NCBI GenBank assembly: GCA_964016885.1
Contig: OZ024745.1
Span: 49,228,001 to 49,292,000, forward strand
Direction: 5' to 3'
DNA: 64,000 nt
From: Eledone cirrhosa
Taxonomy: Eukaryota
A program made the translations under genes and the position numbers. Position 1 is the stretch's first letter. Every line of letters starts with the position of its first letter. Positions 12,453-54,260 of the stretch are shown here, piece after piece. Below the pieces are notes generated by a model, which saw nothing but the letters and a program-made list of their open reading frames with translations, was not told where the DNA came from and made no database searches.

Positions 12453-13326
12453 ATATATATATATATGTATAGTCCCGAAAACCTTGTTCAATCGACTGTT
12501 CTCCTCAGAAACACTAAACTGATTTTATTTATTAGAAATATATATACAGACTCAAGAAATAGGGTATACAGAAATAGATAAATGGGGGCGTGTAGTATGT
12601 CTGAATGGTTCCTGAAACTGGAGAGGGGGGGGGGATTATAGGGTGCGTCAAGGAGAATGATATTAAGAATACTAATAAAAAAAAAAAATGAAGATAAGAA
12701 TTAATCGTAAGGAAAAGGTGAAGGGGAAATTGATGTACTTAGAGGGATTTTCACTAAAGTGTAGTGGTGGTTTGATGGAGTTACGTGTGTGCGCTCGCAT
12801 GCGTCCCTTCCCATGTCGACCGTTCTAGGGCCATAAATGCTGTTTCAAGATTCGTTAATCTTTTATCAGTGACATTCACTTAACCGGTATTTAATGTCTC
12901 GTAAATTAGAGGTTCGACAAAAAGAGATAGATAAAAAATATGGCAGACTTGATATGACCCACTAAAAGAGTGTATATATATATATATATATATATATATA
13001 TATATATATATATATATATATATATATATATATAAAAACAAATAACGAAACGAAATTAAATTTTGTTTCGTTTGTAACTCACTTTTGTATGACTGACGCT
13101 TAAACAATTAAGTTCAAAATGTACATCCACATATGTATACTGAAATACTAGTATGCATATGAATACACACACGTGTACATATGTAGATGTACCGAGTTTT
13201 TCACTGGACACTTTACTGTGAGTGTCCAGCTATTCTGTATGTAAACACACAGACAAACCGGTTTTTAGAGTCATACTGGATTTCGAGGAAACACCTTTCC
13301 TCTATTCTCCAGAAAGCCAGACAAGG

Positions 13327-13371
13327 AATATTGGACTAGTTTCGATGTTGTTACATCTCATCAGCAATATT
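13327..13371 (-). ncRNA. Minimal type I hammerhead ribozyme
   Basis: Reverse complement of 13870-13914. Confidence 0.9.
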
Positions 13372-13869
13372 TACCTATCTTCCGGCCTTTCTAGAGAATC
13401 GTAAAAGCACATATCGTTATATGCTTTTTCTATGAAAATTAGTAGTGGGCAGACTAATTTGCATAGAGCGTGAGTACGTACCGGTTCAGCGGAGACGATA
13501 AAAACAAATAACGAAACGAAATTAAATTTTGTTTCGTTTGTAACTCTGGAAACTCACAGTAAAGTGTCCAGTGAAAAACTCGGTACATCTACATATGTAC
13601 ACGTGTGTGTATTCATATGCATACTAGTATTTCAGTATACATATGTGGATGTACATTTTGAACTTAATTGTTTAAGCGTCAGTCATACAAAAGTGAGTTA
13701 CAAACGAAACAAAATTTAATTTCGTTTCGTTATTTGTTTTTATCGTCTCCGCTGAACCGGTACGTACTCACGCTCTATGCAAATTAGTCTGCCCACTACT
13801 AATTTTCATAGAAAAAGCATATAACGATATGTGCTTTTACGATTCTCTAGAAAGGCCGGAAGATAGGTA

Positions 13870-13914
13870 AATATTGCTGATGAGATGTAACAACATCGAA
13901 ACTAGTCCAATATT
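13870..13914 (+). ncRNA. Minimal type I hammerhead ribozyme
   Basis: aatattg-CTGATGA-gatgt aaca acatc-GAAA-ctag-TC-caatatt: 7-bp stem I, 5-bp stem II, palindromic stem III, GUC cleavage triplet. Confidence 0.92.
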
Positions 13915-14524
13915 CCTTGTCTGGCTTTCTGGAGAATAGAGGAAAGGTGTTTCCTCGAAAACCAGTATGACTCTAAAAACCGGTTTGTCTGTGTGTTTAC
14001 ATACAGAATAGCTGGACACTCACAGTAAAGTGTCCAGTGAAAAACTCGGTACATCTACATATGTACACGTGTGTGTATTCATATGCATACTAGTATTTCA
14101 GTATACATATGTGGATGTACATTTTGAACTTAATTGTTTATATATATATATATATATATATATATATATATATATATATATATATATACGTAAAATAGGA
14201 CGTAGAAAATGAATTTGGAAATATTATCCCTTTTGATTTCAACCGTTTGAAACCGCCCTGGTTTCATGATACATAACTGCTCATTTTAAAATGTTCATAC
14301 TTATATGAAAACCTTCCATCATAATTTCATTTAAGAAAGTTTTGCTTAGTAATATTCCAAACATCAGCTTACTAATTCAAAGGTTTGTTACTTCATTGAG
14401 TTCCTCAAATTTTCAAAATTAATTGATACACATGTGGTAACGAAAGGGTTAAATTATAAATTAATATAAAAAGTTCGGACAGGTTTCTGACAGAATCAAA
14501 GGGCACTTTCATGAATCATCTAAA

Positions 14525-50076: not shown

Positions 50077-50199
50077 GAATATAGACATAGAATATTCGAA
50101 AATATTCTGTATGTTTATAATAAACATTTTGAAGACCTAATCGCTATAGAATAGAATACGTCACGTATTACAATTAGATTCTCGATAAAAGCAAGGGGA

Positions 50200-50242
50200 G
50201 TAATCTACGCGTTTCATTCTTGTTAGAAATCATCAGGACTAC
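50200..50242 (-). ncRNA. Minimal hammerhead, first of 7 minus-strand copies (every 310 bp up to 52060-52102)
   Basis: Reverse complement of the motif at 52510-52552. Confidence 0.88.
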
Positions 50243-52509
50243 ATATCCAGTGCTTTTATCGAGAATGACACAGCTAGAGACTTATAGAATACTTAGCTGT
50301 GTACAGGAACTGGTTTGAAAGAGCGGTTGCCGGTCCGGCAGAAATTAGAAATTGGAATAAATGCTCTGAAATAGCGATATATATGTGAATATAGACATAG
50401 AATATTCGAAAATATTCTGTATGTTTATAATAAACATTTTGAAGACCTAATCGCTATAGAATAGAATACGTCACGTATTACAATTAGATTCTCGATAAAA
50501 GCAAGGGAAGTAATCTACGCGTTTCATTCTTGTTAGAAATCGTCAGGACTACATATCCAGTGCTTTTATCGAGAATGACACAGCTAGAGACTTATAGAAT
50601 ACTTAGCTGTGTACAGGAACTGGTTTGAAAGAGCGGTTGCCGGTCCGGCAGAAATTAGAAATTGGAATAAATGCTCTGAAATAGCGATATATATGTGAAT
50701 ATAGACATAGAATATTCGAAAATATTCTGTATGTTTATAATAAACATTTTGAAGACCTAATCGCTATAGAATAGAATACGTCACGTATTACAATTAGATT
50801 CTCGATAAAAGCAAGGGAAGTAATCTACGCGTTTCATTCTTGTTAGAAATCATCAGGACTACATATCCAGTGCTTTTATCGAGAATGACACAGCTAGAGA
50901 CTTATAGAATACTTAGCTGTGTACAGGAACTGGTTTGAAAGAGCGGTTGCCGGTCCGGCAGAAATTAGAAATTGGAATAAATGCTCTGAAATAGCGATAT
51001 ATATGTGAATATAGACATAGAATATTCGAAAATATTCTGTATGTTTATAATAAACATTTTGAAGACCTAATCGCTATAGAATAGAATACGTCACGTATTA
51101 CAATTAGATTCTCGATAAAAGCAAGGGAAGTAATCTACGCGTTTCATTCTTGTAAGAAATCATCAGGACTACATATCCAGTGCTTTTATCGAGAATGACA
51201 CAGCTAGAGACTTATAGAATACTTAGCTGTGTACAGGAACTGGTTTGAAAGAGCGGTTGCCGGTCCGGCAGAAATTAGAAATTGGAATAAATGCTCTGAA
51301 ATAGCGATATATATGTGAATATAGACATAGAATATTCGAAAATATTCTGTATGTTTATAATAAACATTTTGAAGACCTAATCGCTATAGAATAGAATACG
51401 TCACGTATTACAATTAGATTCTCGATAAAAGCAAGGGAAGTAATCTACGCGTTTCATTCTTGTTAGAAATCATCAGGACTACATATCCAGTGCTTTTATC
51501 GAGAATGACACAGCTAGAGACTTATAGAATACTTAGCTGTGTACAGGAACTGGTTTGAAAGAGCGGTTGCCGGTCCGGCAGAAATTAGAAATTGGAATAA
51601 ATGCTCTGAAATAGCGATATATATGTGAATATAGACATAGAATATTCGAAAATATTCTGTATGTTTATAATAAACATTTTGAAGACCTAATCGCTATAGA
51701 ATAGAATACGTCACGTATTACAATTAGATTCTCGATAAAAGCAAGGGAAGTAATCTACGCGTTTCATTCTTGTTAGAAATCATCAGGACTACATATCCAG
51801 TGCTTTTATCGAGAATGACACAGCTAGAGACTTATAGAATACTTAGCTGTGTACAGGAACTGGTTTGAAAGAGCGGTTGCCGGTCCGGCAGAAATTAGAA
51901 ATTGGAATAAATGCTCTGAAATAGCGATATATATGTGAATATAGACATAGAATATTCGAAAATATTCTGTATGTTTATAATAAACATTTTGAAGACCTAA
52001 TCGCTATAGAATAGAATACGTCACGTATTACAATTAGATTCTCGATAAAAGCAAGGGAAGTAATCTACGCGTTTCATTCTTGTTAGAAATCATCAGGACT
52101 ACATATCCAGTGCTTTTATCGAGAATGACACAGCTAGAGACTTATAGAATACTTAGCTGTGTACAGGAACTGGTTTGAAAGAGCGGTTGCCGGTCCGGCA
52201 GAAATTAGATGATTTCTAACAAGAATGAAACGCGTAGATTACTTCCCTTGCTTTTATCGAGAATCTAATTGTAATACGTGACGTATTCTATTCTATAGCG
52301 ATTAGGTCTTCAAAATGTTTATTATAAACATACAGAATATTTTCGAATATTCTATGTCTATATTCACATATATATCGCTATTTCAGAGCATTTATTCCAA
52401 TTTCTAATTTCTGCCGGACCGGCAACCGCTCTTTCAAACCAGTTCCTGTACACAGCTAAGTATTCTATAAGTCTCTAGCTGTGTCATTCTCGATAAAAGC
52501 ACTGGATAT

Positions 52510-52552
52510 GTAGTCCTGATGATTTCTAACAAGAATGAAACGCGTAGATTAC
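52510..52552 (+). ncRNA. Minimal hammerhead, first of 4 complete plus-strand copies (also 52820, 53130, 53440)
   Basis: gtagtc-CTGATGA-t ttct aaca agaa t-GAAA-cgcg-TA-gattac, enclosed by the perfect 16-bp helix attctcgataaaagca/tgcttttatcgagaat. Confidence 0.9.
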
Positions 52553-54260
52553 TTCCCTTGCTTTTATCGAGAATCTAATTGTAATACGTGACGTATTCTA
52601 TTCTATAGCGATTAGGTCTTCAAAATGTTTATTATAAACATACAGAATATTTTCGAATATTCTATGTCTATATTCACATATATATCGCTATTTCAGAGCA
52701 TTTATTCCAATTTCTAATTTCTGCCGGACCGGCAACCGCTCTTTCAAACCAGTTCCTGTACACAGCTAAGTATTCTATAAGTCTCTAGCTGTGTCATTCT
52801 CGATAAAAGCACTGGATATGTAGTCCTGATGATTTCTAACAAGAATGAAACGCGTAGATTACTCCCCTTGCTTTTATCGAGAATCTAATTGTAATACGTG
52901 ACGTATTCTATTCTATAGCGATTAGGTCTTCAAAATGTTTATTATAAACATACAGAATATTTTCGAATATTCTATGTCTATATTCACATATATATCGCTA
53001 TTTCAGAGCATTTATTCCAATTTCTAATTTCTGCCGGACCGGCAACCGCTCTTTCAAACCAGTTCCTGTACACAGCTAAGTATTCTATAAGTCTCTAGCT
53101 GTGTCATTCTCGATAAAAGCACTGGATATGTAGTCCTGATGATTTCTAACAAGAATGAAACGCGTAGATTACTTCCCTTGCTTTTATCGAGAATCTAATT
53201 GTAATACGTGACGTATTCTATTCTATAGCGATTAGGTCTTCAAAATGTTTATTATAAACATACAGAATATTTTCGAATATTCTATGTCTATATTCACATA
53301 TATATCGCTATTTCAGAGCATTTATTCCAATTTCTAATTTCTGCCGGACCGGCAACCGCTCTTTCAAACCAGTTCCTGTACACAGCTAAGTATTCTATAA
53401 GTCTCTAGCTGTGTTATTCTCGATAAAAGCACTGGATATGTAGTCCTGATGATTTCTAACAAGAATGAAACGCGTAGATTACTTCCCTTGCTTTTATCGA
53501 GAATCTAATTGTAATACGTGACGTATTCTATTCTATAGCGATTAGGTCTTCAAAATGTTTATTATAAACATATAGAATATTTTCGAATATTCTATGTCTA
53601 TATTCACATATATATCGCTATTTCAGAGCATTTATTCCAATATATATATACATATATATATACATATATATATATATATATACATATATATATACATATA
53701 TATATATATATATACATATATACATATATATATACATATATATATACATATATATATACATATATATATATATATATATATATATATATATATATATATA
53801 CATATATATATATATATATATATATACATATATATATATACATATATATACATTATATATATATATATATATATATATATACATTATATATATATATATA
53901 TACATTATATATATATATATATATATATATACATTATATATATATATATATATATATACATTATATATATATATATATAGGTATAGGTATTATCTAGTCT
54001 ATATGAAAGAGAAAAAGAGAAAACAGGCGGATGTACAAGTGCGTGCCCAATCTATGGAAATACACACACACACACAGACACACACAGACACAGGCACACA
54101 CACACACATACACACATGTACAAGCACACACACACTGACGTCCAAATGTGTACATCCACTGATATAAATATGTGCATAAGTATGTATATAATAATGAGTC
54201 AGTGTAAGCCAGCTAGGAAGAAAGCGTTAGACAACGTGACAGTTAGTCAGCATATAAACA

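Follow-up and report, generated by a model that had tools for sequence, protein, structure and literature searches.

Hammerhead insertions in the window

The window analysed here is the whole stretch of 64,000 nucleotides (nt) from the 3.0-Gb genome of Eledone cirrhosa (contig OZ024745.1, positions 49,228,001 to 49,292,000; G000:C5:49228001-49292000 in our numbering), and it houses several insertions of hammerhead-bearing mobile elements, which are non-LTR (non-long terminal repeat) retrozymes. Their units, of 310-540 bp, are non-coding tandem repeats carrying one type I hammerhead ribozyme each, they form arrays of up to 30.7 units, and the genome holds at least 54,214 of their ribozyme cores. 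Three families, called A, B and C, supply the principal insertions listed below, together with a decayed older copy, D, and a fifth family member, M, at 45303 on the minus strand, which the first-pass annotation of the window had overlooked. Folding z scores of the plus-strand copies are against 200 shuffles.

7696 to 8119, no strand assigned: decayed older copy D, of the clade of A, B and K; core +7910-7934, stem II unpaired, inverted stub at 7696-7754, z -0.82
13032 to 14140, no strand assigned: family A insertion, 466-bp unit; arms meeting 5'-to-5' near 13546/13547, (TA)n to left and right
13305 to 13398, minus: family A mirror hammerhead; core 13364-13340, predicted cut after 13334
13843 to 13936, plus: family A hammerhead and its distal clamp; core 13877-13901, predicted cut after 13907 (GUC), z -5.25
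45060 to 45445 (approximate bounds), minus: family member M; U3-A8 core 45303-45279, 8-nt near-palindromic stem III insert, clamp
47012 to 47761, no strand assigned: family B (B1) insertion, unit of about 420 bp; arms meeting 5'-to-5' near 47317-47321, flanked by (TA)n
47205 to 47289, minus: family B mirror hammerhead; core 47259-47235, z -3.45
47426 to 47510, plus: family B hammerhead with clamp; core 47456-47480, predicted cut after 47486 (GUA), z -3.15
50067 to 52209, minus: family C left arm; 6.9 tandem 310-bp units, 7 cores, proximal 3' end into (TA)n
52208 to 53641, plus: family C right arm, with 4 cores in 4.6 tandem units; its 3' end, at the distal unit position 165, runs into (TA)n
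52486 to 52574, plus: hammerhead of family C, the first on this strand, with a 16-bp clamp; core 52516-52540, predicted cut after 52546 (GUA), z -6.78

The first-pass annotation had placed hammerhead motifs at 13870, 47450 and 52510, with a decayed one at 7904, and the corresponding CUGANGA-N14-GAAA cores were found on the plus strand at 13877, 47456, 52516 and 7910. Mirror cores occupy the minus strand at 13364 (A) and 47259 (B), and family C has four cores on the plus strand (52516, 52826, 53136 and 53446) and seven on the minus strand, running from 52096 to 50236; the claimed spacing of 14 nt between CUGANGA and GAAA holds at every one of these. One more N14 motif, at +10363, was rejected as a hammerhead, having no supporting fold (z -0.09).

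All three families read as type I hammerheads with an open helix I of 6 bp, a 4-bp helix II and a stem III reduced to one A-U pair closing a palindromic tetraloop (CUAG in A and B, CGCG in C), the palindromes having computed self-duplex energies of -4.8 and -7.5 kcal/mol. The first-pass description of stem III as a 4-nt palindrome is right for these copies and too narrow for the wider clade, in which it spans 4-10 nt, while the loop II that it gave as UAACA or UAAUA is present and is better drawn as six nucleotides, UAAYAA, on the 4-bp stem, with a U-U at the base of helix II in B and C. Beyond helix I come a 3-nt U-purine-N bulge facing a single U, 3-4 further pairs and the distal clamp, the bulge (UA followed by A or U) and the clamps lying where the annotation had put them, and stem I with its clamp totals 23-33 predicted pairs. 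The CUGANGA, GAAA and UH core is conserved, though some of the related families carry U3-A8 in it. Of 10 clamp regions, 9 fold better as the sense strand, with 37 G-U pairs against 8; the strand bias of G-U pairs noted at first pass holds in A and B but is weak in C (-31.9 against -31.6 kcal/mol), whose clamp consists of 16 perfect Watson-Crick pairs. Drawn as predicted circles, the units of seven of eight families are self-paired, with z from -3.6 to -11.2 and the unit ends paired with each other; the exception is K, an old copy, at -1.1.

Insertion ends and a proposed route of copying

These elements are extremely abundant. A degenerate core pattern matches the genome 54,214 times against once for its reversed control, the family patterns match 7,828 (A), 24,933 (B) and 13,198 (C) times, a U3-A8 pattern adds 2,768 matches (control 7), and a pattern for the G family gives 1,321, which overlap those of the other patterns in part. 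Tandem units measure 461-470 bp in A, 419-538 bp in B and 308-312 bp in C.

It is the anatomy of the insertion ends, studied in 155 arms from 89 loci, that we think is most informative. With unit position 1 taken as the first base after the predicted cut, 142 of 154 uncut 3' ends lie at two fixed internal sites, which are narrow in each family (46 of 48 uncut ends in A, 67 of 76 in B and 29 of 30 in C): 228-233 and 302 in A, about 217 and 273 in B1, about 253 and 312 in B2, and about 131-139 and 165 in C, the sites of A and B being homologous to each other. Families J, J2 and G have the same two ends on inspection. Adjacent opposite-strand arms meet 5'-to-5' in 51 of 52 pairs, the exception being a 43-bp internal rearrangement, and 45 of the 52 pairs combine one distal with one proximal end, in seven an end is cut or falls in neither class, and no pair has two alike; one distal and one proximal end is thus the rule in 45 of 45 classifiable inverted pairs. 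All three insertions in the window obey it, the left and right arms ending at 302 (distal) and 233 (proximal) in A, at 215 (proximal) and 273 (distal) in B, and as listed above in C. After 127 of the 154 uncut 3' ends there follows (TA)n or TA-rich sequence, and a few ends lie in (CAT)n.

The 5' ends behave quite differently from the 3' ends, being spread evenly over the unit (Kolmogorov-Smirnov p 0.15-0.51) and unenriched at the cleavage site, where 1 of 154 falls within 5 nt and 4.1 were expected. Arms longer than one unit, which cross the cleavage site, number 103 of 154 and reach 30.7 units, a share inflated by the requirement that most arms include a core. Mates are almost identical to each other, at a median distance of 0.27% in A and 0 in C, against 3.2% and 1.0% between loci, and 15 of the 52 arms with no called mate still bear a short inverted stub. 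No reverse transcriptase or GIY-YIG reading frame was found in the units or upstream of the arms.

This is the two-ended, inverted anatomy of Penelope-like elements (PLEs), and fragments of two candidate helper families lie in the window itself.

11886 to 12449, plus: 3' fragment of the autonomous-type PLE family P1, Neptune-like by its C-X4-C-X2-C linker; ends in (TA)n
36882 to 38413, minus: fragment of PLE family P2, whose hammerhead core lies at 36948; ends in (TA)n

A Pfam search did not recognise these fragments, which we take to be PLEs on the strength of full frames with YVDD and the cysteine linker, together with the motifs of the family. Frames of P1 reach about 1,000 amino acids, with both YVDD and the C-X4-C-X2-C linker, and this family has 14,117 candidates in the genome; P2 has 57,094. 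Three PLE families (P1, P2 and P3) were examined, each from the best 150 of its 14,000-57,000 candidates. In P1, 12 of 13 inverted pairs have one short and one tailed end, with TA flanks and a tail of about 58 nt, and in P2, 19 of 20 ends lie at two sites, again TA-flanked, with a tail of about 66 nt; P3 has ragged ends and no hammerhead core. Two further features of these PLEs deserve mention. The P1 hammerhead core (window 12227-12254; L059-L070) has helix II only, with no evident helix I partner, and the N-terminal region of P1 is rich in asparagine, as has been reported for rotifer PLEs. In addition, a palindromic, TA-flanked segment at 38267-38566, on the 5' side of the P2 fragment, is probably the inverted end of P2.

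Purified PLE protein, a predicted dimer, cuts and extends both DNA strands, and its reverse transcription begins at two internal RNA sites, which bound the PLE tail (PMC11167929). Three other papers describe an inverted 5' copy, a one-sided tail and microsatellite targets in PLEs (PMC8557442), a tail on one of the inverted pseudo-long terminal repeats, or pLTRs (PMC3846280), and a proposal of circular templates for PLE tandems (PMC4209133). Since the insertions described here have the two-ended inverted anatomy of PLEs, we think that a PLE enzyme, borrowed by the retrozymes, has copied them into (TA)n DNA, double-primed on a predicted circular RNA, and we put the probability of this at roughly 0.6. 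That PLEs mobilise this non-autonomous RNA in one form or another, be the template circular or linear, is in our opinion very likely.

In the sequence of events that we envisage, read-through transcription of a tandem copy would yield an RNA that is cleaved, probably as a dimer through paired palindromic stems III (to judge from the newt and axolotl type), freeing one unit, whose predicted stem I and clamp, of 23-33 bp, would keep the 5'-OH and cyclic-phosphate ends together and favour their ligation into a circle. A PLE protein, which P1 or P2 may supply, would then nick both strands of a TA microsatellite, and reverse transcription would be primed at the two fixed internal sites, one per strand, where the 3' ends indeed lie, 130-310 nt from the cleavage site. 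Both complementary DNAs (cDNAs) would be extended for a variable length, presumably by rolling on the circle; in the insertions this length often exceeds one unit and the 5' ends are joined. Going one step further, we would tentatively propose, at somewhat less than even odds, that a dimeric PLE-like enzyme sits on a single hammerhead circle with two fixed structural sites, one primed per nicked TA strand, that both cDNAs roll, and that the clamp is a natural ligation stem. If true, the tens of thousands of ribozyme copies in this genome, belonging to one superfamily of circles, are a record of how PLEs came by their inversion and tail, as well as of the mobiliser that animal retrozymes have lacked.

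Some points stand against copying from a circle by a borrowed enzyme. The loci were chosen by hammerhead core matches and come largely from the first 47 Mb of contig C1, the filters removed 22 of 177 arms (those below 88% identity or shorter than 0.14 unit), and the two 3'-end windows, which cover 4-7% of the unit and would catch that share of ends by chance, were drawn after viewing the data. The mate arm is strictly nearest in only 11 of 16 A pairs and 4 of 13 C pairs (with 9 ties), and the longest array has 9 variants common to several of its units, which points to change after insertion, so that array length is not all creditable to rolling. The 3' regions of the three PLE families have no homology to A, B or C (z at most 1.4), the similarity between P2 and K (z 4.2) being probably due to the ribozyme, and the base of helix II is paired in just 11 of the 24 ribozymes aligned below, which could lower their activity. 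Moreover, anole PLE hammerhead mutants insert undiminished and the main substrate is uncleaved RNA (PMC11167929), so cleavage need not belong to mobilisation.

These in vitro results favour the most serious alternative, which we nonetheless regard as unlikely, namely that the elements are non-autonomous parasites of PLEs whose templates are multimeric transcripts, linear and uncleaved, on which the PLE enzyme starts at the two internal sites. Long arrays would then derive from source loci that were long already, from template jumps or from tandem expansion at a later time, and the hammerhead would act elsewhere (in 5' processing or RNA turnover) or simply ride along. The unenriched 5' ends at the cleavage site fit uncleaved RNA as well as they fit a circle, and minor variants are shared within two long arrays. 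Nevertheless, 18 of 20 arms of at least three units lack any shared minor variant, their units being identical or differing by singletons, and the compensation seen in helix I, in helix II and at the core pair, together with a clamp that pairs the ends of the monomer, argues that cleavage and end-joining have been selected. Six sequencing runs of unclear kind contain the C unit, and four of them give a self-closing 340-nt contig, which is equally expected from tandem DNA; family A appears at low depth in runs X1, X4 and X5 and at very high depth in X3, there with loose ends into (TA)n at the two mapped sites. The family A reads of all four look like genomic DNA, X3 being perhaps the very source of the assembly, and none of these runs is used as evidence.

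Ribozyme class and family kinship

For the analysis of RNA structure, 164 distinct ribozyme contexts were reduced to 29 at no more than 88% identity and then to 24 by removal of five truncated or mis-registered rows, and covariation was assessed with our own approximation of R-scape, using 150 tree-based simulations as the null. When the 1,176 column pairs are ranked by corrected mutual information, the first nine are without exception predicted ones (five from helix I, three from helix II, plus C3-G8), and two column pairs reach E<0.05 under the tree-based null, with no unpredicted pair passing. The helix I signal is partly circular, since rows had been pre-selected for 5 of 6 helix I pairs, but pairing in helix II and at C3-G8 played no part in the selection. 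C3-G8 becomes U3-A8 in several families, and within the G family alone 25 loci read CG (14), UA (9) or a mismatch (2) at these positions, although this switching may amount to one or few events. The proposal, made at first pass, that RNA structure is under selection is supported by these nine pairs, the two significant ones and the core switch. Neither the pairs distal to the bulge nor any bulge-loop II column pair covaried among the 24 ribozymes; conservation is high at the bulge U (22 of 24), the opposite U (24), loop A3 (24) and loop A6 (23), and it is on this and on the known fold that the proposed contact of the bulge with loop II is based. The Schistosoma ribozyme has the same bulge geometry. 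An interaction that joins the internal loop of helix I to loop II is described in PMC6155905.

The same annotation had seen in these motifs a distinct hammerhead subtype, which is not supported: the architecture is one already catalogued, an outcome that the annotation itself had named as refuting its proposal. We read A, B and C as carrying the canonical type I hammerhead, because helix sizes, loop and palindrome equal the published canonical definition and the geometry of the Rfam family HH9. According to PMC4209133 (Cervera and de la Pena 2014), the canonical metazoan hammerhead has a helix I of 6 bp, a helix II of 4 bp and a helix III of 1-2 bp capped by a palindromic loop of 2-4 nt (4-10 nt in the clade described here), a U3-A8 core variant occurs in Schistosoma PLE hammerheads, and the hammerheads of PLEs are usually minimal; palindromic stems III are common among hammerheads according to PMC3088659. 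The axolotl motifs described in PMC7229834 have either a one-pair helix III with a palindromic tetraloop, as in A, B and C (HHR_Amex1), or a U-U at the base of helix II, as in B and C (HHR_Amex2), and both act as dimers. HH9 (RF02275) aligns column for column, its helices I and II ungapped, and shares the spacing of 14 nt, the A-rich loop of 6 nt and the internal loop that follows 6 bp; A (38.9 bits) and C (19.2 bits) score below its gathering threshold of 52, and B has no Rfam match at E<=10, so the families share the geometry of HH9 but do not belong to that Rfam family. The stem I of the HH9 model has 6+5 pairs, against the 23-33 predicted here, and no description of a long distal clamp was found in the hammerhead papers examined, whose text, as distinct from the figures, was covered; the clamp is genuine and perhaps a local feature.

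The families had also been described as unrelated in sequence, which does not hold. In alignments made without the ribozyme, the clamp and alternating purine-pyrimidine tracts, A aligns with B1 and B2 over the body of the unit (z 12-16.6), K and the window copy at 7910 align with B1 (z 11-16), and C, J, J2 and G form one group (z 25-57). Member M aligns with B1 and K (z 6.8-9.9) and also with C, J, J2 and G (z 4.6-6.7), and weakly with A (z 2.7-2.9), thereby linking the A/B clade to that of C; compared directly outside the ribozyme, A and C give z 0.3-0.6, which is not significant. On sequence grounds the simplest reading is that all families descend from one ancestral element, and we hold the link between the two clades, which comes through the single bridging copy M, with moderate confidence. 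The common hammerhead design would therefore reflect descent and not three independent solutions. The contrary idea, that unrelated families arrived separately at a distinct subtype with a bulge-loop contact and a clamp, could appeal to the null result for A against C, to the absence of so long a clamp from the texts examined and to the failure of every copy to reach the Rfam gathering score, but it seems very improbable to us, given that A, B, K and D are one homologous group, that C, J, J2 and G are another, that M aligns to both (z 4-10), that helix sizes, loop size and palindrome fit the canonical definition, and that no bulge-loop covariation was found.

A number of relatives enlarge this picture. 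J, J2 (L147-L169), K (L146-L166), G (L170-L194), L045 and the window copy at -45303 are related families with a U3-A8 core, some of them in near-identical tandem arrays; both C3-G8 and U3-A8 occur within G, and the stem III palindromes of G, J, K and M are longer than 4 nt. Old dispersed cores with a CAUG palindrome and a highly varied helix II (L195-L219; 129 matches, mostly without an intact clamp) are possibly an extinct older wave. Family H (L035:7711/7729, L038:4811, L094:3141, L099:3304 and L137:1376) has a paired helix III and a helix II like that of C, and several of its copies stop about 20 nt past the cleavage site, in (TA)n, with no reading frame linked to them. Finally, at L153:1327 a J2 arm passes straight into a family B hammerhead, a chimeric junction that suggests a template switch or a nested insertion between families.

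Could these copies simply be the 5'-truncated 3' ends of an autonomous PLE as yet unfound, the ordinary source of dispersed hammerheads? The end anatomy is identical to that of PLEs, and just three PLE families were examined, from the best 150 candidates of each; we consider this most improbable all the same, because the arms run upstream into a further unit and not into coding sequence (hence the 103 of 154 that exceed one unit), because the 5' flanks of the 52 mateless arms share unit stubs and a few pairwise matches but no body that recurs at many loci, and because the hammerheads here are canonical, whereas those of PLEs are usually minimal (PMC4209133). Least credible of all is that these are palindromic satellites acting at the DNA level, devoid of RNA function and paired by inverted-repeat homogenisation, for although the clamp of C forms a perfect inverted repeat, and C, J2 and K fold better as antisense circles, the sense strand and its G-U pairs prevail in the clamp regions, the catalytic core has been preserved and changes at C3-G8, a pair outside the helices, are compensatory.

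One shared motif outside the ribozyme is the octamer ATGCAAAT, conserved in A, B, K and M about 110-130 nt before the cleavage site (unit positions 336 in A, in the region of window 13757, 310 in B1, 350 in B2, 218 in K and 298 in M) and absent from C, G and J; it is possibly an internal promoter element or an RNA motif. A promoter of the small nuclear RNA (snRNA) type, such as newt satellite 2 carries as a repeat, is rejected for now, given that the octamer occurs in 0 of 10 U1 upstream regions and that no convincing match to a proximal element was found.

The remainder of the window holds two other features of note, and its Rfam scan as a whole is dominated by microsatellite matches to microRNA families.

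25244 to 27191, no strand assigned: cluster of direct and inverted repeats, with Rfam Histone3 stem-loop matches at or above gathering at 25775-25820 (minus), 26418-26463 (plus) and 27012-27056 (plus); no histone reading frame among frames of at least 100 amino acids
30815 to 34182, plus: frameshifted long interspersed nuclear element (LINE) with endonuclease (PF03372) and reverse transcriptase (PF00078) domains

Comparison with known retrozymes and PLEs

The hammerhead type, then, is already known, and what we believe to be new is a very large set of non-LTR retrozymes whose insertion ends appear to make the question of mechanism testable. Those ends point to PLE machinery without shared sequence, with start sites that are exact on an RNA of 310-470 nt, and the rule of one distal and one proximal end (45 of 45) constrains how PLEs build their inverted ends. 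With a purified PLE assay to hand (PMC11167929), whether a hammerhead circle is copied by a PLE can now be put to direct experiment.

In coral, mussel and axolotl, expressed retrozyme RNAs take the form of circles closed by RtcB (PMC7229834). A 2020 review (PMC7761336) states that retrozyme repeats show no motif indicating a helper element. More recently Li, Clavereau and Pollet (bioRxiv 10.64898/2026.07.22.740005) argued on the basis of co-occurrence and homology to pLTRs that the retrozymes of animals derive from PLEs and are non-autonomous, and listed the mobilisation mechanism as future work. Like the non-LTR animal retrozymes of PMC7229834 and of that preprint, the families described here consist of AT-rich units that do not code for protein, measure a few hundred bp, stand in tandem and bear a single type I hammerhead apiece; their circles are predicted to be highly self-paired, their copies run to tens of thousands, and PLEs are present in the same genome. 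Particular to the present families, and absent from the accessible parts of the retrozyme descriptions compared, are the 5'-to-5' inverted insertions, the two fixed 3' ends and the (TA)n sites; no published mapping of retrozyme insertion ends was found, in a search with most subscription papers and repeat databases outside it. The retrozymes of Xenopus are homologous to pLTRs according to Li et al., unlike the present families, which lack homology to the three PLE families, and units here reach 538 bp, against the 150-450 bp reported for retrozymes.

As for the clamp, an analogy may be drawn with engineered Tornado circular-RNA cassettes (PMC11994451), in which ribozyme-made 5'-OH and cyclic-phosphate ends are ligated by RTCB beside a ligation stem, although these are synthetic and have two flanking ribozymes, unlike the families here. 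Closest in the build of the insertion itself are the endonuclease-positive (EN+) PLEs and non-autonomous forms such as Chlamys MRC1, which share the inverted, 5'-truncated 5' copy, the tail at one end, the microsatellite targets, the head-to-tail multimers and the two internal start sites. Set beside those elements, the families of Eledone cirrhosa have no coding frame, a canonical instead of a minimal hammerhead, and tails of about 26-74 nt where 30-40 are reported for PLEs.

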